Positions 6,481 to 34,004 are shown, numbered from the stretch's first letter. The stretch is 64,000 nt of DNA from an uncultured Pelagibacteraceae bacterium (GCA_905612235.1 CAJQRF010000011.1:40835-104834), one strand, 5' to 3'. Program-made: numbers and translations. Notes: generated by a model from the sequence alone, not told the origin.

Positions 6481-6637
6481 CTAAAATGACTATCCTAAAG
6501 ATTGTATAAAAATACAAGAGTTAAATTGTCCCTAAAACTCCATTAAATTACTTAGACATTTTGCCGTCTATGTAACTATTGAATTATAGCATATTTTAAT
6601 ACTTATAAATGTTGATAAAATTAATCACACTTAAAAT

Positions 6638-7822: not shown

Positions 7823-7825
7823 TAT

Positions 7826-8830: not shown

Positions 8831-8832
8831 AA

Positions 8833-10119: not shown

Positions 10120-10184
10120 AATTCACCTCTAAATATGATTTGTTATGAAATTTTTTTTATTTTAATATATAAATATTTTATTCT

Positions 10185-11090: not shown

Positions 11091-11098
11091 ATTTTTTT

Positions 11099-12094
11099 AT
11101 GAAAAAGAATAAATATATTTATACAAATGGATTAATTGATTTAGCTCAATCAAGATTAGGATCAAAAATTGTTTTTAAGACTGATGAATTTTTTGCTCCA
11201 GCTAGTCGAATTATAAACCCACTGCCGCCTGTATTTAAAGAAGGTGTTTTCGACTTACATGGAAAATGGATGGATGGATGGGAAACTAGGAGAAAAAGAA
11301 AAAAAGGCCATGACTATTTAATAATAAAACTTGGAAAACCTGGTAGAGTTTCTAAAGTTAATATTGATACATCCTTTTTTAATGGAAACCAACCAACGCA
11401 AGTTTCTTTAGAAGCATGTTTTAGTAAAAAAAATATTCCATATAAAAAAATAAAGTGGAATAAAATACTAAGCAATAAAAAAATAAAAGCAAATAATCAT
11501 CATTTTTTTAATATAAAAAGCAAAACTATTTATTCTCATATTAAATTAAATATTTTTCCTGATGGGGGTATTGCTAGACTTAGAATTTATGGTTCTATAG
11601 ATAATAATAAAATTAAATTTAAAAAAAAAATGATTAATCTTACTTCAGTTTTAAATGGTGCATCGATAATAGCATGTAACAACGAACACTTTGGTAAAGC
11701 TGAAAATATATTAGCTCCAGGCATGGGGAAAAATATGGGTGATGGATGGGAAACTAGAAGAAGCAGAGGAAAGAATTTTGATTGGCTTATACTAAAATGT
11801 GTCACCGCTGGAAAAGTAAATAAAATTCAGATTGATACCCATCACTTTAAGGGAAATTTTCCAGATGCATGTAGTTTACAAGCTGCTTATATAACAAAGA
11901 ATAATACACCTCAATTAATTGTTCAAAATTCTAATAAATGGAAATTATTATTAAATAAAGTAAAGTTAGGACCTCATCGAAAACATAATTTTCAAAATAC
12001 TTTAATGAAGAATACTAAAATAAATTATGTTAAAATTAATATATTTCCTGATGGTGGCATATCAAGAATAAGATTGTTTGGAAATCCAAAATAA
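11099..12094 (+). CDS. alc: allantoicase
   Basis: Two repeated allantoicase modules, each with DGWETRR. ATG at 11099; the track start at 11030 overlaps puuE and is an extension. Confidence 0.85.
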   Translation: MKKNKYIYTNGLIDLAQSRLGSKIVFKTDEFFAPASRIINPLPPVFKEGVFDLHGKWMDGWETRRKRKKGHDYLIIKLGKPGRVSKVNIDTSFFNGNQPTQVSLEACFSKKNIPYKKIKWNKILSNKKIKANNHHFFNIKSKTIYSHIKLNIFPDGGIARLRIYGSIDNNKIKFKKKMINLTSVLNGASIIACNNEHFGKAENILAPGMGKNMGDGWETRRSRGKNFDWLILKCVTAGKVNKIQIDTHHFKGNFPDACSLQAAYITKNNTPQLIVQNSNKWKLLLNKVKLGPHRKHNFQNTLMKNTKINYVKINIFPDGGISRIRLFGNPK

Positions 12095-12588
12095 TGGAAA
12101 CTATTATAAAACCTGTTAAAGTTACAAAAGATAACTTTTCTGATTTTGGAGACGTAATATCTTCAGAAAATATAAAGCCAATTGATATTAACGCAGGTTA
12201 CGCAAAGAGATTTGATGATCTAGCCAATATTAATACTCTTAAAGGTGAGGGAAAAACTATAGTAAGTATTTTTTCTGCACTAAAAAGAAACTTTCCCATT
12301 GAGATTGATATGATGGAAAAACACCCATTGGGTAGCCAAGCTTTTATTCCAATGATTAAAACAACTTTTTTAGCATTTGTTGCGCCTCAAGGAGATTTGC
12401 CAGAAATTAATAAAATTAAATCTTTTGTTATCCCTCCTTCAAAAGGAATAAATTACAAGCCAGGTATTTGGCATTTTCCTTTAATTTCTACTGAAGATAC
12501 TGATTACCTGGTAATTGATAGAAAAGGAGACGGAGACAACTTAATTATTCATCAATTTAGTAAAGAAAAAATCATTCTTAAATACTAA
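12094..12588 (+). CDS. allA: ureidoglycolate lyase
   Basis: 164 aa, HPLGSQAFIP motif, start overlaps the alc stop (TAATG). Confidence 0.8.
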   Translation: METIIKPVKVTKDNFSDFGDVISSENIKPIDINAGYAKRFDDLANINTLKGEGKTIVSIFSALKRNFPIEIDMMEKHPLGSQAFIPMIKTTFLAFVAPQGDLPEINKIKSFVIPPSKGINYKPGIWHFPLISTEDTDYLVIDRKGDGDNLIIHQFSKEKIILKY

Positions 12589-12715
12589 TACTTCAAATGT
12601 ATTATGGACCGTAAATATAGTTCGGCAACCATAAAACAATTTGTGGAAATACAAATGCACCAACTATAATGATTGCTGAAAAAGCTGCAGACATGATAAT
12701 AGAAGATGACAAATT

Positions 12716-13291
12716 ATGATTGAACAAATAATTATTTTTTTTCAAATAGTTTTTATAGACCTAGTCTTAGCAGGAGATAATGTAATTATTATCGGCATGG
12801 TGGCTTCTAAGTTTGATCTCAAATTAAGAAAAAAAATTATATTTTGGGGTATAGGAGCTGCAATTATCTTAAGAATTATATTTACTTTAATCACCGCATA
12901 TTTGCTTCAAATTAATGGTCTTAAATTTATAGGAGGATTACTACTGCTATATATTTCCTATAAACTTTATAAAGATGTAATTAAAAATAAAACAGAAAAT
13001 GAAGCTAATATTAAAGTTGATAAATCAAGTTTTTTTAAAGCAATTATGACAGTAATTATTGCAGATGTAAGCATGAGTTTAGATAATGTGCTGGGAGTTG
13101 CTGGTGCAGCCAAAGATCATTACATTTTATTAATTTTTGGTTTAATTTTATCTATTATTTTGATGGCTACAGTAGCTAATATTATATCTACATGGATAAA
13201 AAAATATAGATGGATTGGTTGGATAGGATTGTTTGCGATAGTGGTAGTTGCGATAGATTTAATTTATAGTGATTTAAAATTATTTTTATAA
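12716..13291 (+). CDS. TerC/YjbE family integral membrane protein
   Basis: 191 aa, duplicated AGDNVIIIG / [12 protein letters not shown] motifs. Confidence 0.75.
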
Positions 13292-13293
13292 AT

Positions 13294-14061
13294 ATGTATC
13301 TTAAAAAAATAAATTTAAAAAATAAAACTGCCTTAGTTACTGGTGCAGGAAAAGGTATTGGCTTAGCTTGTGCTGTTGCTTTAGCTGAGGCTGGGGCTAA
13401 TTTAATTATCATTAGCAGAACTCAGAAAGATCTAGATAAAGTTGCTAAAATAATAAGAACATTTAAATCTAAATGTGTTTCTTACGCTTGCGATGTTACC
13501 AATTACTCGCAAATAAAAAGCTTCATAAATAAACAAAAAAAAATTGATATTTTGGTAAATAACGCTGGAACTAATATTCCTGAACATTTTACAAAAGTAA
13601 AAAAAAAAAATATGGAATATTTAGTTAAACTTAATACCGTAGCAACTTTTAATATAGCTCAACTATGTACTTTAAAAATGCTTGAATCAAAAAATAGAAA
13701 AAAAATAGGTGGTTCAATTATTAATATGTCTTCTCAAATGGCTCATGTGGGTGGTCCTACCAGAAGTGTTTACAATATGACAAAAGCTGGATTGGAAGGT
13801 TTGACTAAAGGTATGGCGCTTGATTTAGCAAAGAGTAATATTAGAGTCAATACGGTATGCCCAACTTTTATAGTTACTCCTATGACAAAAAAATTTCTTA
13901 AGGATAAAAAATTTAAAGAAACTATGTTAAAAAATATTCCATTAGGGAGATTTGCTCAAACAAGTGATGTGGCTACTACCGTTGCTTTTTTAGCTTCAGA
14001 TGCTTCTTCAATGATAACAGGAACTTCAATACTTATCGATGGTGGTTGGACAGCAATGTAG
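13294..14061 (+). CDS. short-chain dehydrogenase/reductase (SDR)
   Basis: TGAGKGIG cofactor motif and a YNMTK (YxxxK) catalytic motif. Contains an in-frame A12 run at 13599-13610. Confidence 0.85.
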   Translation: MYLKKINLKNKTALVTGAGKGIGLACAVALAEAGANLIIISRTQKDLDKVAKIIRTFKSKCVSYACDVTNYSQIKSFINKQKKIDILVNNAGTNIPEHFTKVKKKNMEYLVKLNTVATFNIAQLCTLKMLESKNRKKIGGSIINMSSQMAHVGGPTRSVYNMTKAGLEGLTKGMALDLAKSNIRVNTVCPTFIVTPMTKKFLKDKKFKETMLKNIPLGRFAQTSDVATTVAFLASDASSMITGTSILIDGGWTAM

Positions 14062-14914: not shown

Positions 14915-15643
14915 ATGATTGGAATTTTAGGTGGAATGGGAACGCAGGCTGGCCTAGATTTCTGCAATAAGTTAGCAATTTTAAATAGAGGTAAAGTTGA
15001 TCAAAAGTATCCGATCTTCATATTATACAATAAATCAAATATTCCTGGGAGACCTGAAAACTTACACAAATACAACAAAGTATTAAAAAGTTTAATTAAA
15101 GGATGTCTTTTACTTCAAAAAAATAAATGTAAATTTATTGTTATTCCTTGTAACACTGCGCATTATTGGTACGACGATTTACAAAAAAGAATTAGAATCC
15201 CAATAATTAGTATGCCTAAAGAAGTATATCTACACGCTAAAAAAAATTGTAAAAACAATTCTAAAATAGGAATTCTTGCTACTGAAGAAACGTTAAAAAC
15301 TAACGTTTATTATAAGTTTTTTTATAAAAACTTCAGTCTAATAAGTCCAAAAAAATCTTTACAAACTAAAAATGTCAATAAAGCAATTAAATATGTAAAA
15401 ATGGGAAAAATTAAAAATGCAGAACAAATTATAAAGCCCGCTATCAATTATTTAATAAAAATGAAATGTAGCAAAATAATATTAGGATGTACTGAGTTGC
15501 CGATAGCAATTTTTGCATTTAAATCTTTTAAAAAAATAAAGTTATCTAAGATTTTTTTAGACCCTAATTTAATATTAGCCAGTGCTTCAATGAAAAAATA
15601 CAAAAGTTTTCAAGCGAGAGGATTAAAACAAATAAAGAGCTAA
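14915..15643 (+). CDS. aspartate/glutamate racemase family protein
   Basis: Both catalytic-cysteine motifs are present: PCNTAHYW and GCTELP. Confidence 0.8.
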   Translation: MIGILGGMGTQAGLDFCNKLAILNRGKVDQKYPIFILYNKSNIPGRPENLHKYNKVLKSLIKGCLLLQKNKCKFIVIPCNTAHYWYDDLQKRIRIPIISMPKEVYLHAKKNCKNNSKIGILATEETLKTNVYYKFFYKNFSLISPKKSLQTKNVNKAIKYVKMGKIKNAEQIIKPAINYLIKMKCSKIILGCTELPIAIFAFKSFKKIKLSKIFLDPNLILASASMKKYKSFQARGLKQIKS

Positions 15644-18226: not shown

Positions 18227-20002
18227 TTAAACTTGTTGAACCTTCATGTCTTTAATATTGATACCAGCTACTTGAACGGGTTTTTTCATAGCATCTCTTC
18301 TAAAAGGTTCACCCAATTCTTGGTTTAAAATTATTTCTATAAAAGTGGTTATGCCTTTTTTTTGATCTTCACATGATTGCTTGATTGCATTAGTAGTTTC
18401 TTCCATGGTTTTCACCGTAATACCTTTTAATCCACATGCGTCAGCTACTTTGGCATAACTTAATTCTGGATCTAACTCTGTACCAACGAAATTATCATCA
18501 AACCATAAAATAGAATTTCTTTTTTCAGCTCCCCATTGGTAGTTTCTAAAAATTACCATAGCAATCGCTGGCCATTCTTTTCTTGCGCAAGAACTCATTT
18601 CATTCATGCTGATGCCAAAAGCTCCGTCACCAGCAAAACCAATCACTGGGGTTTTAGGACAACCAATTTTTGCACCTAAAATAGATGGAAAGCCATAACC
18701 GCAAGGGCCGAAAAGTCCTGGTGCTAAATATTTTCTTCCTTTTTCAAAAGTTGGGTATGCATTTCCGATTGCACAATTATTACCTATATCACTAGATATT
18801 ATAACATCTTCCGGCATTCCTGCTTGAATAGCTCTCCACGCTTGTCTAGGTGACATTCTATCCTTATCTCTTTCTCTAGCCTCTTTATTCCAAACAGTTC
18901 CTTTGTCATCGTCTTCATGATCTAAACTTGATAATTTTTGTAACCAAGCAGATTTTGTTTGGTGAATTAAATTTTTTCTTTTTTCTCTACCAGTATCACC
19001 AGCATCAGATGAAAGTTTATCAAGTATTTGTTTCGCAACTAATTTTGCATCTCCACAAATCCCAACTGTTACTTTCTTGGTCAAACCTATTCTATCAGAA
19101 TTCATATCAACTTGAATTATACTTGCATCTTTAGGCCAATAATCCATTCCATAACCTGGTAAAGTTGAAAAAGGATTTAATCTTGTTCCAAGAGCTAAAA
19201 CAACATCAGCTTTAGAAATTAATTCCATTGCTGCCTTTGATCCATTGTATCCAAGTGGTCCAACTGCAAGAGCGTGGCTACCTGGAAAACTATCATTATG
19301 TTGATATCCCGAACATACAGGTGCATCTAATTTTTCTGCAAGTTTTTTACAATCCTCTATAGCTCCTCCAATAACAACACCTGCGCCTGATAAAATAACT
19401 GGAAATTTTGCTTCAGATAACAATTTTGCAGCTCTATTAATTGCTTCAAATCCTCCTGCTTGTCTTTCCAATCTAACTATTGGTGGTAACTCAATATCAA
19501 TAACTTGAGTCCAATAATCTCTTGGCACATTTATTTGTGCTGGAGCTGAACCTCTTATAGCTTTTTCAATGACACGATTTAAAACTTCTGCCATTCTTGA
19601 TGCGTCTCTAACTTCTTCTTGATAGCAAACCATATCTTTAAATAAATTCATTTGTTCTACTTCTTGAAATCCACCTTGACCCATTGTTTTATTTGCTGCT
19701 TGAGGTGTCACTAAAAGTAATGGAGTATGATTCCAGTAAGCTGTTTTTATTGGTGTTACTAATCCTGTAATACCTGGTCCATTTTGCGCAATAACCATTG
19801 ACATTTTTCCAGTTGATCTTGTATATCCGTCAGCAATTAAACCACCGTTAGTTTCATGAGCAACATCCCAGAATGTAATACCTGCTTTTGGAAATATATC
19901 TGAAATCGGCATAAATGCTGAGCCGATAATTCCAAAAGCATGTTCTATGCCATGCATTTGCAGCACTTTTACGAAAGCTTCTTCTGTTGTCATTTTTGTC
20001 AT
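18227..20002 (-). CDS. xsc: sulfoacetaldehyde acetyltransferase
   Basis: From the ATG at 20002 the protein starts MTKMTTEEAFVKVLQMHGIEHAFGIIGSAFMPISD, a characteristic Xsc N-terminus, with the ThDP motif GDGAFG...N. The 59 extra codons in the track ORF run into the divergent promoter and are rejected. Confidence 0.85.
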   Translation of the reverse strand: MTKMTTEEAFVKVLQMHGIEHAFGIIGSAFMPISDIFPKAGITFWDVAHETNGGLIADGYTRSTGKMSMVIAQNGPGITGLVTPIKTAYWNHTPLLLVTPQAANKTMGQGGFQEVEQMNLFKDMVCYQEEVRDASRMAEVLNRVIEKAIRGSAPAQINVPRDYWTQVIDIELPPIVRLERQAGGFEAINRAAKLLSEAKFPVILSGAGVVIGGAIEDCKKLAEKLDAPVCSGYQHNDSFPGSHALAVGPLGYNGSKAAMELISKADVVLALGTRLNPFSTLPGYGMDYWPKDASIIQVDMNSDRIGLTKKVTVGICGDAKLVAKQILDKLSSDAGDTGREKRKNLIHQTKSAWLQKLSSLDHEDDDKGTVWNKEARERDKDRMSPRQAWRAIQAGMPEDVIISSDIGNNCAIGNAYPTFEKGRKYLAPGLFGPCGYGFPSILGAKIGCPKTPVIGFAGDGAFGISMNEMSSCARKEWPAIAMVIFRNYQWGAEKRNSILWFDDNFVGTELDPELSYAKVADACGLKGITVKTMEETTNAIKQSCEDQKKGITTFIEIILNQELGEPFRRDAMKKPVQVAGINIKDMKVQQV

Positions 20003-20109
20003 AAAATATCTTTTTAAATAAATTTTTCTTAATATTGGCGTTTTTTTGCTTAATGTCAAAAAACTTACTTTAATTATATCAAATTTAGGTCTATATCCAG
20101 TAAGAAAAA

Positions 20110-20397
20110 ATGTCTCAAACAGATTTAATAATTCATGATGAAAAAGATAACGTTGCAGTAGTTGTTGTTGAAAAAACAACGAAAAATCAAGAATGCAATG
20201 GTTGGATTATGGAAAACGATAAAACCATTAACATTACATCAATCAATGAAATTCCATTAGGTCATAAAATAGCTCTACAGGATCTTAAAGAAGGCGATAC
20301 AATACTAAAATATGGTCATGATATTGGTAAAGTTGTTAAGCCAATAGCAAAAGGTGATCATGTTCATGTTCACAATGTCAAAACTAAGAAGTGGTAA
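20110..20397 (+). CDS. suyA: UxaA-family small (SAF-domain) subunit, probable (2R)-sulfolactate sulfo-lyase subunit alpha
   Basis: 95 aa SAF-like N-terminal module of the altronate-dehydratase family, encoded as a separate gene. Divergent from xsc. Confidence 0.6.
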
Positions 20398-20401
20398 AAA
20401 T

Positions 20402-21568
20402 ATGGAAATTCCAAAAAGTTTTTTAGGTTTTAAAAGAGAAAATGGCAGAGCTGGTACTAGAAATCATGTGATTATCCTGCCAGTTGATGATATTTCAAAT
20501 GCTTGTGCCGAAGCTGTTGCAAATAATATTAAAGGAACAATTGCATTACCTCATTCTTATGGAAGACTTCAATTTGGCGCTGATTTAGAATTGCACTTTA
20601 GAACAATGATTGGAACTGGAAGCAATCCAAATGTTGCAGCAGTAATAGTTATTGGAATTGAACCTAAATGGACAAAAAAAATAGTGGATGGAATTGCAAA
20701 AACTGGGAAACCTGTTGAAGGTTTTCATATTGAGCGCACTGGAGATATTGGCACAGTTATGAAGGCTTCAAAAAAAGCTCAAGAATTTGTGATGTGGGCA
20801 TCTGAAAAACAAAGAGAAGAATGTCCTTTAAGTGATTTGTGGATATCAGTTAAGTGTGGAGAATCTGATACAACTTCTGGATTGGCTGCAAACCCAACAG
20901 TTGGAAATTTAATGGATAAATTAGAACCATTAGGAGTTCATTTGTGTTTTGGAGAAACATCAGAGCTTACGGGGGCTGAAACTGTTTGTGCTAAGAGAGG
21001 TTCTACACCAGAGGCTTCTGAAAAATTTATGAAGGCGTGGAACTCTTATAACGATTTTATACTTAAAGAGGCAACTGATGACCTTTCAGAAAGCCAACCT
21101 ACTGCAGGAAATATTGCAGGAGGTCTTACAACAATTGAAGAAAAGGCATTTGGGAACTTTCAAAAGATAGGGGCATGTAAGTTTATAGATGTTTTGGGGC
21201 CAGCAGAAGAACCTAAAAAAGGAAAAGGTCTTTACTTTATGGATACTTCATCTGCAGCAGCAGAATGCGTAACTCTTCAAGCAGCAGCTGGTTTCAATAT
21301 TCATTTATTTCCAACAGGTCAAGGTAACATTGTAGGAAATCCTATTGAACCTGTTATTAAATTAACAGCTAATCCGTTAACTGTTAAAGGTATGGGCGAA
21401 CATATTGATTGTGATGTTTCAAAAATACTTACACGTGAGATGAACATGTCTCAAGCTGGTGATGAATTAATTAAAACCACAATAAGAGTAGCTAACGGTA
21501 GACTAACCTGCGCAGAAGCATTAGGTCATAAAGAGTTTGTAATGACTAAACTTTACAGAAGTGCGTAA
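20402..21568 (+). CDS. suyB: UxaA-family large subunit, probable (2R)-sulfolactate sulfo-lyase subunit beta
   Basis: 388 aa UxaA C-terminal-type protein starting at the ATG at 20402, 4 nt after suyA. The split two-gene architecture matches SuyAB. Confidence 0.6.
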
Positions 21569-21963
21569 TGACAAAATCTGAAAATGATTGTTTTTTATGC
21601 AGTAGAGCAAAAAACGAATGTATTTATTCGAGTAAGTTTGTGTTTGTTATTAGGGATAATAAATTTCCTGTTACCAAACACCACACATTAATTGCAACCC
21701 ATAGACATGTTTCTGATTTCTTTGATTTAAATAATGAAGAACTTAATGATTTATCTAATGTACTTAAAAAACAAAGACAATTATTAATAAACTTAGATAA
21801 AGAAATTACTGGTTTTAATGTAGGGGTTAATGCTGGTGTCGATGCAGGTCAATCAATTATGCACTGTCATATTCATTTAATTCCACGAAGAAAAGGTGAT
21901 ATGGATAATCCTAGAGGTGGCGTTAGAGGAGTGATACCATCAAAACAAAAATATAATAAATGA
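21568..21963 (+). CDS. HIT family nucleotide hydrolase/transferase
   Basis: 131 aa with the histidine triad HCHIHLIPR. Start overlaps the suyB stop (TAATG). Confidence 0.85.
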   Translation: MTKSENDCFLCSRAKNECIYSSKFVFVIRDNKFPVTKHHTLIATHRHVSDFFDLNNEELNDLSNVLKKQRQLLINLDKEITGFNVGVNAGVDAGQSIMHCHIHLIPRRKGDMDNPRGGVRGVIPSKQKYNK

Positions 21964-22880
21964 ATAAAGATTATTTTTCAAAAGTAAGAATCTTAGATGG
22001 TGGCATGGGACAGACCCTACTTCAAAAAGGATTAAAGGCTAAAGGATCTCTTTGGTCAGCTACTGCATTGATTGAAGAAAAATATCACCAACTAGTAATA
22101 GATACCCATTTAGATTTTATAAAATCTGGAGCAGACGTCATTGTTACCAATAATTTTGCTGCACGAAGATCAAGAACTCTACAAAATAATGTAGATGAAC
22201 ACTTTAATTATGCTAATAAAAAAGCTGGGGAACTTGCTCTGAAAGCAAAAGAAGTTTCAAAAAAAAATATTTTAATAGCAGGTAGTTTGCCAGCTCAATA
22301 TGATACTTATGTACCTGATGAAAGAGATCAAAATTTAATAAAGGAAGATTTTTATGATCAAGCTAATTTATTAAAACCTTTTATTGATTTTTTTTACTTA
22401 GATGTTTTATCTAGTATTAGAGAAATTGAAATTGCATTAAATGTGGTTGAAAAAATGAATCTTCCTGTTTTGATTGGAATGCATATTAGCGAAAATGGTA
22501 AATTACCTTCAGGTGAAACTATAACTAAAATGGTCGAAACATGTAAAAGTAAAAATTGGTTAGGTTTAATTGCGTCATGTGTTTCGCCAGAAATTATAGA
22601 AAATACTATTGATGAGATTAGATCATTAAAAATTTCTTTTGGCTTTAAAGCAAATCTTTGGAAAGAACAACCACTGCCAGTTGGCGAAATTGTTAGAATA
22701 GATGCAGCTGGTTTTGGAGAAAACCCTGTTGTTGTTTTGGGTACTAGAGATGAGATTACAGCAGAAAAGTTTTATGACTTTTCAAAAAAAATGGTTGATA
22801 AAGGTGCTACTATTTTAGGTGGATGCTGTGAGACAAAACCAGCTCATATTAACGCTATTTCCGAATTGAAGCAGATCTAG
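21960..22880 (+). CDS. homocysteine S-methyltransferase (MmuM/BHMT-type)
   Basis: LDGGMGQ N-terminus and zinc-ligand cysteines (SCVSPE, GGCCETKP). Start overlaps the HIT stop (ATGA). Confidence 0.8.
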   Translation: MNKDYFSKVRILDGGMGQTLLQKGLKAKGSLWSATALIEEKYHQLVIDTHLDFIKSGADVIVTNNFAARRSRTLQNNVDEHFNYANKKAGELALKAKEVSKKNILIAGSLPAQYDTYVPDERDQNLIKEDFYDQANLLKPFIDFFYLDVLSSIREIEIALNVVEKMNLPVLIGMHISENGKLPSGETITKMVETCKSKNWLGLIASCVSPEIIENTIDEIRSLKISFGFKANLWKEQPLPVGEIVRIDAAGFGENPVVVLGTRDEITAEKFYDFSKKMVDKGATILGGCCETKPAHINAISELKQI

Positions 22881-23319
22881 CTTTCTTAATTCTCCATCTA
22901 GATCCTTCTCTAACTATATAACCTACGCAATTTTTTGCTCCACACTTGCAAACAAATTGTTTATAGTCCTCATCATAACCAAATCCATAATCATAAGATA
23001 ATTCTTCACCTTTTTTTATATCTTTAATAGCAGTAATCCATAGTTTCAAACCTTTACCTTCTACTTCACAATTTGGATTGCAAGAATGATTGATTAATCT
23101 TGCATCATTATACTTAAAGTCTCCATCCAGATCATATCTGCTGTTCAAATTAAATAAATATATTGCTTTATCGTTATCAAATTTTGGATTTGTGTCGGTT
23201 TCTTTTTTTGTGATGAGCTTACCTTTATAATTAATAACTAATTTTCCAGATTTTATATTTTTTGTTGCATAAAGACCTTTATTATCAATATTTGATTTTT
23301 TAATTTTATATAATTTCAT
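22855..23319 (-). CDS. SET-domain protein (putative protein-lysine methyltransferase)
   Basis: 154 aa; NHSCNPN, ELSYDYGF and a post-SET CKCGAKNC. 3' end overlaps the convergent methyltransferase gene by 26 nt. Confidence 0.8.
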   Translation of the reverse strand: MKLYKIKKSNIDNKGLYATKNIKSGKLVINYKGKLITKKETDTNPKFDNDKAIYLFNLNSRYDLDGDFKYNDARLINHSCNPNCEVEGKGLKLWITAIKDIKKGEELSYDYGFGYDEDYKQFVCKCGAKNCVGYIVREGSRWRIKKARSASIRK

Positions 23320-23321
23320 AG

Positions 23322-23626
23322 TTATTTGTTTGTACTGGTAAATACATAATATGCAACAGCTTCAATTTCTTCAGGGGTTAAAATACCTTCCCAAGGTGGC
23401 ATAACTCCAGCACCATTTGTCACAGCATAAATAATCTGATCAATCTGCAGTTTAAGCATATCAAGATTTGGACCAATATCGCCTGATGATTCTGCAGATT
23501 TCAAAGTGTGACAAGTCCCACACGCTGCTTTATTGTTATAAATCTCTAATCCTAAAATCATTTTTTCATCAGCAAAAGAAACTTTTGAAAAAAAAATAAA
23601 ACTAAGATGAGTAGTTTTTTTTTCAT
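23322..23626 (-). CDS. class I c-type cytochrome, apparently split by a frameshift between signal peptide and mature domain
   Basis: Mature domain 23322..23561 has a CGTCH heme site and a VMPPW Met-ligand region but no signal peptide. An ATG at 23626 opens MKKKLLILVLFFF... in another frame; one extra nt in the T9 run (mRNA sense) at 23588-23596 would join them. Confidence 0.65.
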
Positions 23627-23635
23627 ATATAAAAT

Positions 23636-24739
23636 CTATATTGCTTTTGGAGGTATCGTTTTGGGTGCATTAATCCGTTTACTTATTTGCCTTCTTATAT
23701 AAGAAACTGCAACACCAAAAAATAAAGCTATAAAAATTGACAATATTCCATAAACAATTGGGTAGTTATTTGATAAATTATAAATTGTATTTCCAAAATC
23801 ACTAATCTCTGCGATTTTATTTGTTGGAAGTGTTAAGCTTGCTTTTCCACTTTCTTTATTTTTAAAAAAAGTTTCATATGCCATCAGCAGTCCAATTGAG
23901 AGCATAAGCACAGCTAATAAGGCTTTAAGTTGAGACCCCTGAAGTCTTTGTCCAATTTTTTGACCTACATGAACTCCAGCAATAGATCCTGTGATTAGTA
24001 TTAAAACAAGCATTAAATCAATTGTTTGATAGGTGAAAGCGTGAGAGATTGTAACAAATCCTGTTACGAATATAGTTACAAATAATGAAGTGCCAGGAAC
24101 AAGTTTTGTTGGCATGCCAATTATATATATCATTGCTGGCACCATTAAAAATGCTCCACCCACACCCATAATAGCAGAGACAAAACCAACAATAACACCT
24201 AATAAAAGTGGAACTAAAGCGCTTTCATAAACTTTAGATGTCTTAAATCTCATTCTAAAAGGAAGTCCATGTATCCAGTAATGAGTATGTAATTTTTTTT
24301 TTATTGGAATTTTATTTTTGAAAATATTAAGTTCTTTGAGTCCATCTCTAAGCATGAAACTGCCAATGATTGCCAATACATACATGTATGCTAACGCGAT
24401 TACTATATCTATTTTACCAATTCCTTTAAAATAACTGAATGTTAAAATTCCAATAAAAGTTCCTGCTAACCCACCAGTAATTATTAACCAACCTATTTTA
24501 ATATCTAATGTTTTTTTAAACCAATGAGTGAGAGCTCCAGATGATGATGAGGCTAAAATATTATTTGCTTCATTTGCTACTGCATAAATTGGAGGTATGC
24601 CCATAAAAATTAACAAGGGGGTCATCAAAAATCCTCCCCCCACACCGAATAATCCAGATAAAAAACCTACGCTATAACTTACGAAAAGTATTAAAATTAC
24701 GTTTATTTGAACTTCTGCTATGGGTAAAAAAACTTCCAT
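23636..24739 (-). CDS. TauE/SafE family sulfite/organosulfonate exporter-like membrane protein
   Basis: 367 aa, internal duplication with FGVGGGFLMTP and MGVGGAFLMVP motifs. Confidence 0.8.
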   Translation of the reverse strand: MEVFLPIAEVQINVILILFVSYSVGFLSGLFGVGGGFLMTPLLIFMGIPPIYAVANEANNILASSSSGALTHWFKKTLDIKIGWLIITGGLAGTFIGILTFSYFKGIGKIDIVIALAYMYVLAIIGSFMLRDGLKELNIFKNKIPIKKKLHTHYWIHGLPFRMRFKTSKVYESALVPLLLGVIVGFVSAIMGVGGAFLMVPAMIYIIGMPTKLVPGTSLFVTIFVTGFVTISHAFTYQTIDLMLVLILITGSIAGVHVGQKIGQRLQGSQLKALLAVLMLSIGLLMAYETFFKNKESGKASLTLPTNKIAEISDFGNTIYNLSNNYPIVYGILSIFIALFFGVAVSYIRRQISKRINAPKTIPPKAI

Positions 24740-24795: not shown

Positions 24796-25146
24796 TTAAT
24801 AAATAGTTGCGCCAAAGACTTTAACATCATCATCTTCGACACCAAGCACTAAACGCCCTAAGAAATCCCCTGGAATCGTATTACTATTCTGTTTATAAAT
24901 AACTGTTACATGAAGGTTTCTTCTTAAACAGCCCAATACTTCTTTTTTATCTGATAAACTTGTTAGCAACTTGTTATTTGCCCATTGTTTCCCCAGCTCC
25001 ACTTCATTAGCTCCAAAAAGCATTTTTGTTGAAAAATCTCTTGTAAAACCACCGTAATCTTTAATATTAGACGACTTTACGAGATTTTTCCAAATAGGGT
25101 TGGCTATTTTTATAATCTCTTCGTCAGTTTTCTTGAGAAGATCCAT
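24796..25146 (-). CDS. hypothetical protein (116 aa), immediately downstream of aprA
   Basis: Soluble-looking ORF with no motif I recognise. Sits 16 nt after aprA on the same strand. Confidence 0.5.
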   Translation of the reverse strand: MDLLKKTDEEIIKIANPIWKNLVKSSNIKDYGGFTRDFSTKMLFGANEVELGKQWANNKLLTSLSDKKEVLGCLRRNLHVTVIYKQNSNTIPGDFLGRLVLGVEDDDVKVFGATIY

Positions 25147-25162: not shown

Positions 25163-27022
25163 TTAAGAAGCTTTCTTTTTCTCTTTTTCATCAACTATAT
25201 GGTAAACAGGAACTTTTTCTAAAGTAAATTTTCCAGTTTGGGGATCTCGTCTTGATACAGTCAAGCAATGCCAGTTTTCATCATCTAATTTCATGTGATC
25301 ACCACGATAATAATAACCAGGCCAACGAGTTTCTTCACGAAATAAAGTGTGTTCTGTTACACATTGAGAAGTTAAAGCACGGTGTTTTAACTCCCAAGCA
25401 CGCATAAGTTGGTGGTAATCTTCAGCTCCTACATTTTCTAAATCTTCTTCTAACCATTTAAGAAGTTCTAAACCTTTTTTAAGCATATTGCCGTTTGTCA
25501 TATAATTAGTAGCAATACCTCCAACGTATTCATCCATAATTCTTTGTAGACGTTGAAGACCTTGAATTGGAGAAATATAGCTTGGAGAAACTGTTCCTCC
25601 AGTAATTTCATTACGACCTATGGTATAATTTTCTAATGGTTTATAAATAACTTTTTTAAAATTTTCACACTGTTTTTCAGAAACATTTATATTTTCTGCT
25701 TTTTTATCTTCTATATATTTTACTGCTGCTTTTGCAGCTAAACGTCCTTCGGTAAAAGAGCCTGAAGAAAATTTATGAGCGCTACCTCCAACAGTATCTC
25801 CTGCTCCAAAAAGTCCTTCAACAGTTAACATTCTGTTGTATCCCCAGAAATATTCTGGTGGGGAAAGATCTTCTGGACCGCTTACCCAAGCACCTGAACA
25901 GGTGGCATGAGATCCCATTACGTAAGGTTCAGAAGTAGTTAGTTCAGGATTAGTATACTTTGGATCAATATTTTGAGATGCCCAAACTACAGCTTGACCA
26001 ACAGTCATGCCAAGAAAATTTTCCCACCCAACAGTCTCTAGGTGTGGATCTTGAAATGCTTCAGTTGTCACCATTTGAATTGGCCCTCTACCAGCAATCG
26101 TTTCTTGAATAAATGCATGATTTCGTAAACATGTTGGTGTTGGATGATGATCAATATATTCACCAACTAATTCTTTAGTTTGATCATACCATTTTTTTTC
26201 GTAATTTTCTCCGTTTGCATTTTGAGTATAAGTTTTTAAATGTAAGAAATAAGCACCTACTGGACCATATCCATCTTTAAATCTACATAAAACAATTCTG
26301 TTTTCCATTTGAGTCATTTTAGCGCCAACAGCAATTGGTAATGCATAAGCAGAACCATTACTCCATGGTGCGTACCAAGTTCTTCCCATACCTTCACCTA
26401 CAGCTCTTGGTTTAAAAATATGTGATGCTCCACCAGCAGCTACAATTACTGTTTTAGCGCGAAAAACATAATAATCTCCCGTGCGCATATTAAAACCAAC
26501 TGCACCACCTACTCTATTCTCGTTCGTCTCATCCATTAGTAAATGAGTTATCATAATTCTATTATATATTTTATCAGCAGATTTTTTTGCTGCTTCAGCA
26601 ACAATTGGTTTGTAACTTTCTCCATGAATCATTATCTGCCATTTACCTTCTCTTAGATAACGACCAGTTTTTTCATTTTTCATCATTGGCAAACCCCACT
26701 CATCAAACATATGTACTGTTGAGTCAACATGACGAGCCATATCATAGCCAAGATCTTCTCGAACCATACCCATCAGGTCATTACGTGCATATCTAACATG
26801 ATCTTCAGGTTGATTCTCATCCCACTGCATGCCCATGTAACAATTAATTGCATACAGTCCTTGAGCTACTGCACCGCTTCTATCTATGTTTGCTTTTTCA
26901 ACACAAATGATTTTTAAATCTCTTCCCCAATGTCTAGCTTCAAAGGCAGCACCAGTTCCTGCCATCCCGCCCCCAACAACAAGTACATCACAATCTTCAA
27001 AATGTGTTTTATGTTTGGCCAT
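25163..27022 (-). CDS. aprA: adenylylsulfate (APS) reductase alpha subunit
   Basis: 619 aa flavoprotein, VVGGGMAGTGAA FAD fold, AprA-length and pattern; overlaps aprB by 1 nt. Confidence 0.9.
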   Translation of the reverse strand: MAKHKTHFEDCDVLVVGGGMAGTGAAFEARHWGRDLKIICVEKANIDRSGAVAQGLYAINCYMGMQWDENQPEDHVRYARNDLMGMVREDLGYDMARHVDSTVHMFDEWGLPMMKNEKTGRYLREGKWQIMIHGESYKPIVAEAAKKSADKIYNRIMITHLLMDETNENRVGGAVGFNMRTGDYYVFRAKTVIVAAGGASHIFKPRAVGEGMGRTWYAPWSNGSAYALPIAVGAKMTQMENRIVLCRFKDGYGPVGAYFLHLKTYTQNANGENYEKKWYDQTKELVGEYIDHHPTPTCLRNHAFIQETIAGRGPIQMVTTEAFQDPHLETVGWENFLGMTVGQAVVWASQNIDPKYTNPELTTSEPYVMGSHATCSGAWVSGPEDLSPPEYFWGYNRMLTVEGLFGAGDTVGGSAHKFSSGSFTEGRLAAKAAVKYIEDKKAENINVSEKQCENFKKVIYKPLENYTIGRNEITGGTVSPSYISPIQGLQRLQRIMDEYVGGIATNYMTNGNMLKKGLELLKWLEEDLENVGAEDYHQLMRAWELKHRALTSQCVTEHTLFREETRWPGYYYRGDHMKLDDENWHCLTVSRRDPQTGKFTLEKVPVYHIVDEKEKKKAS

Positions 27023-27492
27023 TAATAATAGACACCTTTTTTAAATGAATCTTTAGGAATTGATGGTAGTTCTTTTTTTGTGTTTAATCCTTTAGGTTCA
27101 TTATAAAGAATCTGAGATTTAATTTCACCTGGATTAGGCTTTTCTCCTTCAGCAAGTTTTGGAATAAATTTACCCCAAGGCTTGGTTGTTATAGGAGAAA
27201 CAAAGTTTTTTTCTTTGCCATTTCTAAATTTTATCTTCCAAGAGATTGTACCTTTTTCTTCTTCTCTTCTAACTCTTACGCTGTGACCCATTGGAGCAAA
27301 GTCAGCGTACCCACGAACATCTATTGCGTGATTGGGGCAAGCTTTAACGCAAGCATAACATTCCCAACAAAAATTAGGTTCAATATTTACAGCACGTCTA
27401 ATCGTTTCATCAATGTGCATAATATCAGATGGGCAAATATCTACGCAGTGTCCGCAACCATCGCAGCGAGTCATGTATACAAATGTTGACAT
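27022..27492 (-). CDS. aprB: adenylylsulfate (APS) reductase beta subunit
   Basis: 156 aa, two [4Fe-4S] motifs (CDGCGHCVDICP, CWECYACVKACP) plus the AprB C-terminal tail. Confidence 0.9.
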   Translation of the reverse strand: MSTFVYMTRCDGCGHCVDICPSDIMHIDETIRRAVNIEPNFCWECYACVKACPNHAIDVRGYADFAPMGHSVRVRREEEKGTISWKIKFRNGKEKNFVSPITTKPWGKFIPKLAEGEKPNPGEIKSQILYNEPKGLNTKKELPSIPKDSFKKGVYY

Positions 27493-27597: not shown

Positions 27598-28398
27598 TTA
27601 ATAGTGTTTTGGTGCCTCACGTTTAATTCCTAAGCCAAATCGTTTAGGTGCATCAGCTTCAGGAGGTAAATTATCTCTTGATCCATCGGCTTCAGCTAAA
27701 TTTTTTTGAATTGCTGCTCCTGGCTTATAAAACATGTGTGCAAATTTTGACCAGTAAACTCCACCAAATAAGACTAGGTTAGAAACGCCATATAAAACTA
27801 AAAATACCTTATCATCCCATCTGTCATTTAAATTTAAAGATTGTAAATAAGACCAAATTAATCCAAACAAAGATGTAGCAATAAGTGCAAGCACAAATAA
27901 ATCTGCTTTAATAATTCTGTACCAAGGTTGTGCTTCTGAGTAAACATCTACTCTTAAGAACAGCCAAAACCAACTTCCACCTAGAACAGTCATAAATGCA
28001 CCTGCATGCCAAATTATAGGCCATGCCGATGGTGTGTTAGAAGATGAAGAAGTATAACAAAAAATCATAACAGCCGAAGCAATCCAAAATAAAATAGTTC
28101 CATACATTCCTAGTAAATGTGCAACTCTTCTTTTGCCGGCGCCTAACTCCGAAGTAGTTCCAATATCGTAGACTACAGATTTAACAATAATAGAAGCTCT
28201 TTCTCTAGTTCCTAATACTCTTGTCGCAGATTTTTTTGCTTTTTTTGCATTTTCAAAAAAATATTTTACATTTTTTTTATGAATTATATCAAGCAATGTT
28301 CCCATAGCCGCGAGCACCACCATTACAATTAAAAACAATTGAATATAGAGAGGCGAAACTATATCTGTGAGCGTTGAAAATGGATTGTTATAAATCAT
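27598..28398 (-). CDS. aprM: AprM-like membrane anchor of APS reductase
   Basis: 266 aa polytopic protein directly upstream of aprBA, the aprM-aprBA arrangement described for sulfur oxidisers and SAR11. Assignment rests on context plus topology. Confidence 0.7.
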   Translation of the reverse strand: MIYNNPFSTLTDIVSPLYIQLFLIVMVVLAAMGTLLDIIHKKNVKYFFENAKKAKKSATRVLGTRERASIIVKSVVYDIGTTSELGAGKRRVAHLLGMYGTILFWIASAVMIFCYTSSSSNTPSAWPIIWHAGAFMTVLGGSWFWLFLRVDVYSEAQPWYRIIKADLFVLALIATSLFGLIWSYLQSLNLNDRWDDKVFLVLYGVSNLVLFGGVYWSKFAHMFYKPGAAIQKNLAEADGSRDNLPPEADAPKRFGLGIKREAPKHY

Positions 28399-28487: not shown

Positions 28488-29159
28488 CTAAGCAGCTACT
28501 TGCATTGGAATATTATGCTTAACTGCCATTCCAGTTAAAAAATTCCAAAGATATTTAGCTGTAGATAAAGCTGATTTTTCCGCCTTAACTTGTTCAGCTA
28601 CAGTTAAACCATCAAGTAATTTTTCACATGCTACTCTGTGGTATTTGTCAGCAGTTTTATGAACTTCAAAAAATTCCAATCCTTCTTTTGAAGAAACTCC
28701 ATAATGATTTTTTAGTCCTCTAATCTTAGTTTCAGCAATTTCTGGAATTTGTCTTTCGTAAGTGTAAAGAGAGGCTAAACCTTCTGCATAACTAGCTCTT
28801 CCATTTTTGAAAAAATTATCAATCATATCTTCAGTAAACTTTTCTTTAGTAACTGAATCTATTTTTGATTTATCCGCACCCATAGCTGATGCAAAATTTT
28901 TCCAAAGTTTAGGATGATCTGCGTTTTGGTTTTCTTCATCTTGAAGATTTTCAAGTAAAATTTTTCTTTTCTCGATATCTTCACACAAAGAATGAGTAGC
29001 ACTAATATAACGTGGAAACGCTTTTACATGTTGATAATACTGCTCAGCATAATCTTTTATTATTTCTCTAGTTAGTTTGCCTTCATTCCAAGATTTGTAA
29101 AATGGATGATTTAGTAAGTGGTACTGGTCCAGTTTTTTGTTTAGTTCTTTTGAAAACAT
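28488..29159 (-). CDS. CADD/PqqC-like heme-oxygenase-fold di-metal oxygenase
   Basis: Aligns by eye along its length with Chlamydia CADD (CT610): HPFYKSW..G.LT, YYQHVKAFPRYISA.HS.C, LL.NL.DEEN, LW..F, LYTYERQIPEIA..KIRGL, H..AD..H. Confidence 0.8.
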   Translation of the reverse strand: MFSKELNKKLDQYHLLNHPFYKSWNEGKLTREIIKDYAEQYYQHVKAFPRYISATHSLCEDIEKRKILLENLQDEENQNADHPKLWKNFASAMGADKSKIDSVTKEKFTEDMIDNFFKNGRASYAEGLASLYTYERQIPEIAETKIRGLKNHYGVSSKEGLEFFEVHKTADKYHRVACEKLLDGLTVAEQVKAEKSALSTAKYLWNFLTGMAVKHNIPMQVAA

Positions 29160-29267: not shown

Positions 29268-29642
29268 TTATTTTAATTTACCTTTTTCTCTTAGTTCTTT
29301 TCTGATTTTTGTGGCTGAAATTTTCTGAATTTCCTCAGACAAAACTATTTTTTCAATTTTGTAACCAACTCCTCTACCGTAGCAAATGTTTGTAATATTT
29401 GGCACAAGAACAACTTTAAATCTATTTTTAAATTTTGGGTCTAGTCTCTCAGTTATTTTTAATTTTACTTCGTTAAAATCAAATGGATTATCATCTACCC
29501 CTTTGACATCTCTTACCTGTATGCAAACTTGTCCTGTTTTCTTAATTATTTTTTCAAATAATGCGTAGTGTCCATCATGGAAAGGCTGCCATCTTCCAAG
29601 CATTTGTGCTGTTGGTTTTTTGTTATCCCACGCGTAAGACAT
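29268..29642 (-). CDS. small HxGH nucleotidyltransferase (NMNAT/cytidylyltransferase-like)
   Basis: 124 aa; GRWQPFHDGH (HxGH) and ISATKIR (ISxTxxR) motifs of the nucleotidylyl transferase superfamily. Confidence 0.65.
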   Translation of the reverse strand: MSYAWDNKKPTAQMLGRWQPFHDGHYALFEKIIKKTGQVCIQVRDVKGVDDNPFDFNEVKLKITERLDPKFKNRFKVVLVPNITNICYGRGVGYKIEKIVLSEEIQKISATKIRKELREKGKLK

Positions 29643-29644
29643 TG

Positions 29645-30052
29645 TTATTTAATTTCCCTTGAAATTTTTGCTGCCCATTCTTTAGCATTTTGAGTTGTTA
29701 CATGGTAATCATATTTTTCTGGTTTTACAAATAATGCATTTGTATCATCAAATCTTCCTTTTTTTATAGTATCTACCCATACCGTATAATCAGCATTAAA
29801 TAACTCTCTAGTTTTAGGCAACGGACAAATAAAGTCTGCAACTACACGATGCCCTTCTTTGATATACTTGTCAGCATAATCTGACATCCTTTTAGCTTGT
29901 CTTAATCTCGCTTCTGGTGAAAAATCCCAATCATTAAGCTGTTCTCTTATTTTGTCCGCATTAAGCCATTTTGCGTCTAGTAAGGCTGCAAGTTCAGAAG
30001 CCAAAGTTGTTTTTCCAGATCCTGGCAAACCCATTACAAGAATTTTCTTCAT
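29645..30052 (-). CDS. small P-loop kinase, adenylylsulfate (APS) kinase-like
   Basis: 135 aa; GLPGSGKTTLA Walker A, then NADKIREQLNDWDFSPEARLRQAKRM...VVADFICP, paralleling the CysC pattern D..R..L...LGFS..DR.EN.RR...FISP. Confidence 0.6.
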   Translation of the reverse strand: MKKILVMGLPGSGKTTLASELAALLDAKWLNADKIREQLNDWDFSPEARLRQAKRMSDYADKYIKEGHRVVADFICPLPKTRELFNADYTVWVDTIKKGRFDDTNALFVKPEKYDYHVTTQNAKEWAAKISREIK

Positions 30053-33749: not shown

Positions 33750-33925
33750 AAACCTGGTCCACACACCCGAAGGTGCATGAACAAAAGTTTTTGGTTCGTC
33801 GTTTTAGGCGCTACCGCCGAACCCGCCACTCCACTTGTTTAGCGCTGCTTAGTGGAGTTTTCTGCCCTATAAGCTTGAACCTTTCGGTTTTTCCTTATCT
33901 GGCCAGTTAAGAGTTGCCTCTTAAG
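33750..33925 (-). ncRNA. unassigned structured small RNA (multi-hairpin, about 170 nt)
   Basis: ORF-free patch, much more GC-rich than its flanks, between convergent genes. Read on the minus strand it forms hairpins capped by GCAA (33914-17), GAAA (33882-85) and UUCG (33768-71), plus a 7-bp hairpin at 33829-57. A closing helix CUGGCC/GG(A)CCAG is followed by U5. Confidence 0.6.
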
Positions 33926-34004
33926 TCAAATACATTTAACCACATTAAAAAAAAAATTAAATCACTATTTAGTTGTTTTATAAGTCTAATAACTAACCTG
34001 TTAA

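Follow-up and report, generated by a model that had tools for sequence, protein, structure and literature searches.

We analysed a 64-kb window (64,000 nucleotides read on one strand, GC content 30.5%) of the genome of an uncultured Pelagibacteraceae bacterium. The host genome (G000; 836 kb, 62% complete) belongs to the Pelagibacterales (SAR11), and its named relatives are SAR11 single-cell genomes and HIMB058. Our subject is a run of four plus-strand genes, in which the two subunits of a sulfolactate sulfo-lyase are followed by genes for a HIT-family protein (hereafter HIT) and for a homocysteine-type S-methyltransferase (HMT):

20110-20397, plus strand: suyA, small subunit of (2R)-sulfolactate sulfo-lyase; 95 amino acids (aa); Pfam SAF.
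20402-21568, plus strand: suyB, large subunit of sulfolactate sulfo-lyase; 388 aa; Pfam GD_AH_second and GD_AH_C.
21568-21963, plus strand: gene for a Fhit-branch HIT protein; 131 aa; Pfam HIT.
21960-22880, plus strand: gene for HMT, a zinc-dependent thiol, homocysteine-type S-methyltransferase (PF02574); 306 aa; Pfam S-methyl_trans.

On reading the junctions directly from the sequence, the suyA stop codon (TAA, 20395-20397) was found to precede the suyB ATG at 20402 by a 4-nt gap, whereas the stop and start codons of suyB and HIT share the pentanucleotide TAATG (21566-21570) and those of HIT and HMT the tetranucleotide ATGA (21960-21963). The four open reading frames (ORFs), their Pfam families and these three junctions are exactly as described in an earlier, sequence-only reading of this DNA, which had also proposed that the genes are co-translated as an operon.

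The four genes have the organisation of a single operon: they lie on one strand, each start codon abuts or overlaps the preceding stop codon, and the interior lacks a terminator. The interior of the unit contained zero terminator-like sites and zero Rfam matches, and candidate internal terminators or promoters gave nothing above chance. Rfam searches at E values up to 1 over 19800-23800 likewise returned no riboswitch (e.g., SAM-V) or other RNA element, and control of the operon by such an element was rejected because nothing matched around the genes. The window's only Rfam match above the gathering score was a full-length IMES-2 RNA motif (RF02035, 156 bits) at 33791-33931 on the minus strand.

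The tight packing must, however, be set against the character of the genome itself. Gaps of at most 4 nt, or overlaps, occurred in 21 of the 48 same-strand neighbouring gene pairs of the window, i.e., tight junctions are the norm here, which weighs against reading an operon from them; because they are so ordinary, spacing alone is weak evidence of a functional link. Conservation of the junctions across species, unlike spacing, exceeds what chance would give: TAATG (between suyB and HIT, or between suyB and HMT where HIT is missing) and ATGA (between HIT and HMT) both recur in the other species examined. Contigs from RNA libraries of relatives (approximately 90% identity; run X2, records 12 and 13) bridged the suyB/HIT junction (21434-21704) and the HIT/HMT junction (21843-22003), although DNA carry-over is possible and the runs consist of contigs assembled from mixed relatives rather than of reads, so that a contig does not prove one transcript. 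RNA depth was rejected as a measure of expression, since conservation of suyB explains the high depth there, and the sparse cover of HIT and HMT is uninformative. The proposal of a co-translated operon was therefore upheld in its tight packing and in the conservation of its junctions, with weak support from the bridging contigs, but lost the argument from spacing. Taken together, the four genes probably form a tightly packed, co-transcribed unit.

The genes surrounding this unit bear directly on its function and are as follows:

7826-8830, minus strand: zinc-dependent alcohol dehydrogenase (Pfam ADH_N and ADH_zinc_N), a candidate HpsP-like dehydrogenase of sulfopropanediol (2,3-dihydroxypropane-1-sulfonate, DHPS), directly downstream of hpsN.
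8833-10119, minus strand: hpsN, sulfopropanediol (DHPS) 3-dehydrogenase, which makes sulfolactate; Pfam Histidinol_dh; 10 kb upstream of the operon.
18227-20002, minus strand: xsc, sulfoacetaldehyde acetyltransferase, divergent from suyA; NCBIfam matches.
20003-20109: divergent spacer between xsc and suyA, the presumed promoter region; 107 nt, AT-rich, no Rfam match.
22855-23319, minus strand: SET-domain protein gene, convergent to HMT; Pfam SET, E 3e-23.
23322-23561, minus strand: small c-type cytochrome; Pfam Cytochrome_CBB3.
23636-24739, minus strand: tauE, TauE/SafE-family (TSUP) permease, a presumed sulfite/sulfonate anion exporter; Pfam TauE, E 6e-43.
24796-25146, minus strand: hyp116, a conserved 116-aa protein after aprA; no Pfam, NCBIfam or PADLOC match.
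25163-27022, minus strand: aprA; TIGR02061, 994.6 bits (cut-off 641.75).
27022-27492, minus strand: aprB; TIGR02060, 192 bits (cut-off 135.65), and Pfam APS-reductase_C.
27598-28398, minus strand: aprM-like membrane anchor; weak match to the QmoC model, always upstream of aprB.
29268-30052, minus strand: gene pair for a 124-aa nucleotidyltransferase-like protein (29268-29642) and a 135-aa APS-kinase-like P-loop protein; weak Pfam matches.

The UxaA-family pair at 20110-21568 was assigned with high confidence to SuyAB on the strength of its similarity to known enzymes and of its setting. The suyB product matched Pfam GD_AH_second (E 1e-32) and GD_AH_C (E 8e-85), and was 69.6% identical to SuyB of P. 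versutus and 64.6% identical to that of C. pinatubonensis, over 98-99% of its length. The former match sits in a suyA-suyB-exporter cluster and the latter in an hpsN-hpsO-MFS-hpsP-suyAB cluster (MFS, major facilitator superfamily), and suy/hps clusters of both types have been summarised as established SuyAB pathways (PMC11193023). The suyA product scored 21.3 bits with SAF, barely above the cut-off of 21, and matched the N-terminal part of the GarD model TIGR03248; among SAR11 relatives it was 74-92% identical and invariably encoded directly upstream of suyB. The dN/dS of suyB was approximately 0.03 against the relative G013. A split SAF small subunit with a GD_AH large subunit is the SuyAB architecture, and genes for the supply of sulfolactate (hpsN) and the disposal of sulfite (xsc, tauE, aprABM) are linked to the pair.

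An alternative in which the pair is a sugar-acid dehydratase of the altronate/galactarate type, and the operon consequently unrelated to sulfite, draws on the fact that the only named NCBIfam and PDB matches are galactarate dehydratases (TIGR03248, 156.7 bits; 6u7l, E 7e-35). That TIGR03248 score is nevertheless far under the cut-off of 730.85, the split subunit form and the 65-70% identity to SuyB proteins encoded in suy/hps clusters fit SuyAB, hpsN, xsc, tauE and aprABM flank the pair, and SAR11 SuyAB transcripts and proteins have already been reported (bioRxiv 10.1101/2024.12.10.627767). We consequently rejected the dehydratase as very improbable, chiefly on the SuyB identity and the presence of hpsN in the window. 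Action on a sugar acid was the very finding by which the sequence-only reading would have been undone; identity and context point instead to SuyAB, and its assignment of a sulfolactate lyase was borne out.

The SuyAB systems of Paracoccus pantotrophus and Cupriavidus pinatubonensis resemble the present one in consisting of a two-subunit UxaA-family enzyme, with a small SAF and a large subunit, and in being linked to hpsN, an exporter gene and other sulfite-producing genes. They differ in that HIT and HMT have here been added through overlapping stop and start codons, and in that the sulfite is predicted from the genes to pass to AprMBA rather than to a sulfite dehydrogenase of the SorAB type.

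The product of hpsN was 54% identical over residues 2-423 to the annotated HpsN of C. pinatubonensis (E 3e-155). In that organism's hps-suy cluster the MFS transporter gene and suyA are separated by a dehydrogenase gene, and HpsP is the (R)-DHPS 2-dehydrogenase of the organism (PMC11193023); by analogy, we infer an HpsP-like role for the dehydrogenase at 7826-8830. The xsc product scored 1032 bits with NF005713 (cut-off 620) and 964 bits with TIGR03457 (cut-off 676), and its start is probably the ATG at 20002 rather than the TTG at 20179, because both model matches begin at residue 60-62 of the longer ORF. A promoter-like site in the xsc-suyA spacer (20059-20031, minus strand) is a consensus match only. 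The hyp116 gene directly follows aprA in nearly all SAR11 loci that reach that far, in both families and with Pelagibacter included, and is a conserved, unnamed member of the apr operon.

Several further observations were made in the same region. At the far end of the four-gene unit, the 3' ends of HMT (plus strand) and of the SET-domain gene (minus strand) overlap by 26 nt (22855-22880), with no terminator between them. An Asp/Glu-racemase family protein encoded at 14915-15643 (plus strand) scored 147.6 bits with the model for the cysteate racemase CuyB (cut-off 190), and is possibly a cysteate-related racemase near the sulfonate island. Beside aprM lies a CADD/TENA-like gene (28488-29159, minus strand), a place which in genomes of the layout called C below is taken by pabB-pabA-pabC-like genes (L069:7500-10001); this fits an alternative route to p-aminobenzoate through the CADD-like protein.

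HIT orthologues were located in 61 relatives and in 80 public loci, and the proteins of the window were mapped onto their flanks. Three island layouts were found among the mapped loci (<> marks divergent genes). Layout A, xsc<>suyA-suyB-HIT-HMT, is that of the present genome and of five to six other species of its genus. In layout B, seen in HIMB058 and approximately 15 other loci, xsc<>suyA-suyB-HIT faces tauE-hyp116-aprA-aprB-aprM and HMT is absent. Layout C, represented by approximately 35 loci, consists of pabB-pabA-pabC-HIT, a spacer of 96 nt and aprM-aprB-aprA-hyp116-tauE, facing suyB-suyA<>xsc; in L069, the locus of this layout that was read in detail, the HIT start overlaps the pabC stop. 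Further species of the window's genus carry suyA-suyB-HMT without HIT, HMT being joined to suyB by the same TAATG, while in one such species a 44-nt suyB-HMT spacer takes the place of TAATG. HIT and HMT are thus two separable, optional cassettes, each of which is found with suyAB without the other. An apparent 22-residue remnant of HIT upstream of HMT in one relative (G007) was rejected as a decayed gene, being the end of a 4-kb contig. The gene order that the sequence-only reading wished to see conserved is accordingly kept in other species besides this strain, all of them in one part of a single Pelagibacterales genus: it is a local arrangement of two optional cassettes. The closely related genomes with and without HIT or HMT constitute a natural experiment.

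The HIT protein itself matched Pfam HIT with an E value of 9e-17 and carries, at residues 99-105, the histidine triad HCHIHLI, which is of the HxHxHxx form with hydrophobic residues at x. Its recognisable features are a CxxC, AGQS, HCHIHLIPRR and a C-terminal GD..NP.GGVRGVIP.KQ.Y tail. Across nine SAR11 orthologues 46 alignment columns were invariant, including the CxxC, the GQSI.HCHIHLIPRR.GD stretch and a P.GGVR.VIP..Q.Y tail, so the catalytic motifs do not vary. In PDB searches the nearest sequences were NitFhit (1e-12), mycobacterial Ap4A (diadenosine tetraphosphate) phosphorylases (1e-10 to 1e-11; Rv2613c, 1e-10) and human Fhit (6e-9), Hint proteins being more distant (Hint1, approximately 4e-4). 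A Foldseek search with the AlphaFold model of HIT (mean pLDDT 74.7, the C-terminal tail unreliable) returned Rv2613c, NitFhit (root-mean-square deviation 1.9, 38% identity) and Fhit at the top. By sequence and by predicted fold, therefore, the protein is placed in the Fhit branch, nearer to Fhit and Ap4A phosphorylase than to Hint. Its dN/dS was approximately 0.19 against the nearest unsaturated relative, as compared with 0.03 for suyB, which evolves about six times more slowly; the gene is under selection, but loosely.

Each of the known enzymes nearest to HIT differs from it in some respects. With Fhit, the hydrolase of Ap3A (diadenosine triphosphate), it shares a single-domain HIT fold, the HxHxHxx triad and a common stretch, DAGQ(S/T)..H.HIH(L/I).PRR.GD. 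Unlike Fhit, HIT is bacterial, has an N-terminal CxxC and the conserved C-terminal NP.GGVRGVIP.KQ.Y tail, belongs to a wider subfamily often fused to an HNH nuclease, and has an activity on adenosine 5'-phosphosulfate (APS) that is only predicted. The mycobacterial Ap4A phosphorylase Rv2613c, an ATP adenylyltransferase, was its top fold match (3wo5/3ano) and a strong sequence match, and some orthologues of HIT are named 'ATP adenylyltransferase' by the Joint Genome Institute. However, NCBIfam NF052622 gave HIT only 46 bits, far under the cut-off of 290, the mycobacterial enzymes have AGGS where HIT has AGQS, and their N-terminal extension is absent from it. A call between hydrolase and phosphorylase from AGQS versus AGGS was rejected, as the motif difference is too weak, and a literature search found no open paper settling that choice from these motifs.

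The role proposed here for HIT, removal of the APS formed by AprBA in a sulfite oxidiser, without ATP sulfurylase, is that of the APAT/ADP-sulfurylase of Thiobacillus denitrificans, a GalT-branch protein like yeast Apa1/2. APAT is larger than HIT and, as a GalT-branch protein, has a motif of the HxHxQ type; HIT, whose 131 residues include a complete HxHxH triad, falls outside that family. The sequence-only reading had also admitted a GalT-branch ADP-sulfurylase as a model for HIT. This option failed: HIT is a single Fhit-branch domain without the two lobes of GalT proteins, its score of 21.2 bits with Ap4A_phos_N fell below the cut-off of 23.1, and its matches to DUF4922 and DUF4931 were likewise under their cut-offs.

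Handling of APS by a protein of the Fhit branch is a different matter, and is plausible by analogy. Eukaryotic Fhit proteins act as adenylylsulfate sulfohydrolases (EC 3.6.2.1), and both hydrolysis and phosphorolysis of APS are catalysed by Hint4 and by DcpS (PMC4613722 and its reference 11). The chemistry proposed for HIT, with an AMP-histidine intermediate and sulfate as the leaving group, is documented for Fhit and for Hint4/DcpS. SAR11 bacteria have been described as having aprBA but lacking sat, the ATP sulfurylase gene (PMC5069961); their sulfite is detoxified by AprBA, sat and cys genes are missing, and the fate of the APS was left open (PMC5069961, PMC12636525). Our own searches agreed with this picture. 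Of the 61 relatives, 4 contained the sat family PF01747 and 38 had an aprA scoring above its cut-off; the 20 relatives with a completeness of 90% or more gave no PF01747 match, nor did the 62% complete host genome. A literature search found no published proposal of a HIT protein acting on APS in SAR11.

The distribution of the gene also supports such a role. Among 151 sampled genomes of the family, which are related and hence not independent observations, 34 carried HIT and all 34 of these carried aprA, as compared with 25 of the 117 without HIT. By genus, HIT was found in 20 of 20, 6 of 21 and 5 of 21 sampled genomes, plus two genera of one genome each; the 20 genomes of the first (g8) are all approximately 99% complete. 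SAR11 genomes, streamlined as they are, have kept HIT within 2 kb of apr or suy genes in three layouts and five genera, and in layout C it is the gene immediately upstream of aprM. A distant alphaproteobacterial metagenome-assembled genome (MAG; OFTM99, locus L054), the AprA of which is 51% identical, has the order sat-ankyrin-...-aprB-aprA-CxxCxxCC-HIT-xsc. In the same locus (3145-13825) pta and a gene for a GMC oxidoreductase are convergent, and a 315-aa CxxCxxCC protein stands where an aprM-type electron partner would be expected.

Several findings weigh against an APS role for HIT. No orthologue was found in any of the 24 genomes of the Pelagibacter family (f2), 17 of which have aprA. HIT is also missing from approximately half of the aprA-positive genomes of one genus (g4) and from most of those of another (g1); overall it is absent from most aprA-carrying genomes searched, many of them in the window's own family. 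In L054 it coexists with sat and is therefore not simply a substitute for it, and in one SAR11 genome (G035) it stands in a non-sulfur context. The idea of the sequence-only reading that HIT handles APS was thus strengthened by its place beside aprM in layout C, by the 34 of 34 co-occurrence with aprA and by the scarcity of sat, and weakened by the many aprA-positive genomes that do without it. We regard the idea as reasonable.

The wider relationships of the protein pull in another direction. Its closest relatives outside SAR11 (50-56% identity) are the C-terminal domains of HNH-HIT fusion proteins of approximately 328 aa, from SAR86, Marinobacterium, Palleronia, Nitrosomonas marina and a Methylococcaceae MAG. 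The fusion loci, with one split form, are:

L062:9395-10387, HNH-HIT fusion.
L079:9449-10372, HNH-HIT fusion.
L100:289-1272, HNH-HIT fusion.
L057:9395-10369, HNH-HIT fusion.
L078:9398-10381, HNH-HIT fusion.
L050:8964-10372, split form.

In Pelagibacter HIMB1509 the HIT gene comes directly after an HNH-like gene that is split, an HNH gene adjoins HIT in one other locus, and an SNase gene lies nearby in another. In approximately half of the 150 best cluster representatives the HIT domain is the C-terminal end of a protein of 190-340 aa. These fusions and HNH or SNase neighbours suggest that the wider HIT subfamily acts on nucleic acids or in defence, which counts against a sulfur function here. 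A known defence system was rejected, since PADLOC gave generic HIT and HNH matches only, and a literature search on HNH-HIT fusions returned nothing relevant.

HIT could accordingly have no APS role at all, being either a Fhit-like housekeeping enzyme (acting on Ap3A, Ap4A or AMP-amidate) or the surviving half of a mobile HNH-HIT nuclease or defence cassette, kept in a variable island for an unrelated reason. The nearest off-island relatives, HIMB1509, the HNH and SNase neighbours and the frequency of longer proteins ending in a HIT domain all speak for this, as do the dispensability of HIT in many aprA-positive genomes and its sixfold faster evolution relative to suyB. Conversely, no HNH gene accompanies HIT in any of approximately 58 SAR11 island loci, the gene has been retained near apr and suy with invariant catalytic residues, aprA is present in every HIT-positive genome, and co-location with aprBA and xsc recurs in the distant MAG. 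On this evidence we consider a HIT without any part in APS metabolism unlikely, but a rival to be taken seriously. Independent recruitment of HIT into the island was rejected: a quick tree put layout C with the HNH-fused relatives (SH-aLRT 90), but by the approximately unbiased test a single SAR11 clade was not rejected (p 0.65), and the tree constrained to it had the better score. The simplest history suggested by the sequences would be one SAR11 HIT lineage, in which the nuclease was lost or never present, shuffled within the island.

A second alternative leaves HIT near APS metabolism but gives the main task to the neighbouring 124-aa and 135-aa proteins, which would consume APS, HIT serving only as a safety valve or proofreader that removes surplus APS, or adenylylated side products, whenever SuyAB and Xsc release sulfite in bursts. 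As a universal partner of AprBA the 124-aa gene is better than HIT, a further point against the latter: in the 24 Pelagibacter genomes it occurs in exactly the 17 that have aprA, and in the Pelagibacter loci L106-L108 it and the P-loop gene face aprM-aprB-aprA-hyp116 convergently. It is present in our window (29268-29642); layouts A and B contain it together with HIT, and L054 contains HIT together with sat. However, the function of the pair is predicted from weak Pfam matches (for the 124-aa protein, CTP_transf_like at 20.6 bits with no significant stretch; for the 135-aa protein, AAA_33 and APS_kinase), two genomes of family f1 (G024 and G028) have the 124-aa gene but no aprA was found in them, and the pair lies outside the island in layout C, although it is present elsewhere in the G030 genome. 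We judge this division of labour distinctly improbable.

HMT, the product of the fourth gene, matched Pfam S-methyl_trans with an E value of 7e-46 (157.8 bits, cut-off 22), and its zinc cysteines, Cys207 and Cys289/290 (GGCC), are invariant, E. coli MmuM included. With E. coli MmuM and mammalian BHMT it shares the PF02574 TIM-barrel zinc-thiol methyltransferase fold, the DGG motif, a conserved Trp and three zinc cysteines. It nevertheless stayed under every NCBIfam equivalog cut-off (PRK09485, 90.8 against 215; PRK07534, 72.9 against 338; PRK08645, 97.6 against 453), is equidistant from BHMT (7e-12) and MmuM (3e-11), with 23% identity to E. coli MmuM, and has a longer, BHMT-like loop region in place of the MmuM arrangement. 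The Glu of BHMT (Glu159) and of the MmuM 'CETLP' motif binds the amino group of homocysteine; at this position HMT and most of its orthologues have Asp, the G030 orthologue has His and the G027 orthologue Glu, which weighs against an ordinary homocysteine methyltransferase. Moreover, in contrast to MmuM and BHMT, no S-methylmethionine or betaine transporter gene lies beside HMT, its neighbours being sulfite-handling genes instead. Its dN/dS was approximately 0.15.

In at least 13 genomes of the window's genus the HMT orthologue adjoined suyB directly, and in four genomes it stood next to hyp116/aprA. In G030 the gene belongs to a TauE-2OG oxygenase-HMT cluster (2OG, 2-oxoglutarate), and in G034, a genome without aprA or suyB, an HMT-TauE operon lies between genes for a SorA-like molybdoenzyme and cytochrome c and molybdenum-cofactor genes (L116, G034:C1:548000-564000). 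From approximately 3360 to 10500 of that locus we read moaC-moaA, the SorA-like molybdoenzyme and cytochrome c, HMT-TauE on the opposite strand, and then flavodoxin-like, pirin and mog-like genes; by its gene content the locus appears to be an alternative sulfite-oxidation module in which the same methyltransferase clade is embedded. Across five genera, then, the immediate neighbour of HMT is suyB, hyp116/aprA, or a TauE-family gene that itself lies beside the gene for a SorA-like sulfite oxidase, and G027 offers the only context unrelated to sulfur. As judged from these neighbourhoods, HMT would recurrently be partnered not with the cleavage of sulfolactate but with the handling of sulfite or with a TSUP/TauE permease. 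This is a lead only, because both small TauE genes are no more than distantly paralogous to the island tauE, in a broad family, and a literature search on an HMT-TauE link returned nothing relevant. The absence of HMT from HIMB058-like genomes that have a suyAB operon also tells against a part in sulfolactate breakdown. The link that the sequence-only reading drew between organosulfonate breakdown and methyl-sulfur metabolism was therefore recast: we found nothing that ties HMT to sulfolactate itself, but it does follow sulfite-handling and TauE-family genes.

One could go further and place HMT in the sulfonate pathway, where it would either accept a methyl group from a sulfonate with a methylated sulfonium or ammonium centre, supplying SuyAB or Xsc with the demethylated compound, or would methylate a thiol or other sulfur nucleophile, distinct from homocysteine, that arises with sulfite. 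The TAATG joining HMT to suyB in species without HIT, the G034 and G030 clusters away from suyAB, the variable residue at the homocysteine-binding position and the BHMT-like loop are in its favour. Yet the TauE proteins of G030 and G034 come from a family that transports many anions and are only distantly related to the island permease, both loci lie among molybdenum-cofactor genes, HIMB058-like genomes pair suyAB with no HMT that we could find, and the G027 neighbours have nothing to do with sulfur. We think such a role for HMT quite improbable.

The explanation that we consider best, though we put it forward tentatively and a little short of an even chance, is that the four genes form one operon within a SAR11 organosulfonate-to-sulfate island, in which HIT contributes accessory cleavage of APS and HMT the methylation of a thiol. 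Homology and context assign to HpsN and the neighbouring dehydrogenase the conversion of DHPS to sulfolactate, to SuyAB the splitting of sulfolactate into pyruvate and sulfite, to Xsc the formation of acetyl phosphate and sulfite from sulfoacetaldehyde, and to AprMBA the joining of sulfite to AMP to form APS. His101 of HIT, the middle His of HCHIH, would then attack the alpha-phosphate of APS, releasing sulfate and forming an AMP-enzyme intermediate, to be resolved by water to AMP or by phosphate to ADP. In this way HIT would return the adenylate consumed by AprBA, in a lineage where ATP sulfurylase was not found, and it would do so as an accessory rather than an obligatory enzyme, keeping the adenylate pool free during bursts of sulfite. 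Taken alone, accessory cleavage of APS through AMP-His101 to sulfate and AMP or ADP is possible by analogy with Fhit, though we rate it as somewhat doubtful. HMT would be a zinc thiol methyltransferase of the BHMT/MmuM kind, which may methylate homocysteine to methionine, drawing on a small onium compound as the methyl donor, an assignment in which we have low confidence; it may have been kept with the sulfite-handling genes as both serve the organosulfur economy of the cell.

The SuyAB part of this scheme is known biology, and the APS idea is a variation on the known chemistry of the Fhit sulfohydrolase and of APAT. What would be new is a bacterial Fhit-type HIT protein, recruited from a subfamily that rides with HNH nucleases, as the exit from APS in part of the sat-less, AprMBA-using SAR11, together with a methyltransferase that may have a new thiol substrate tied to sulfite or sulfonate rather than serving ordinary methionine formation; we regard this as unlikely. 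The HNH nuclease link of the HIT subfamily cautions against reading function from one neighbourhood. If the proposal is true, HIT would set sulfate free and give back the adenylate as AMP or, through a phosphorolysis that would conserve energy, as ADP.

SAR11, the most abundant heterotroph in the surface waters of the ocean, is among the major consumers of sulfonates made by algae, such as DHPS, sulfolactate and taurine. A Fhit-like HIT protein that is found only with aprA in the family sample, and that is mobile within the island, is thus a concrete candidate for the step from APS to sulfate in part of SAR11.

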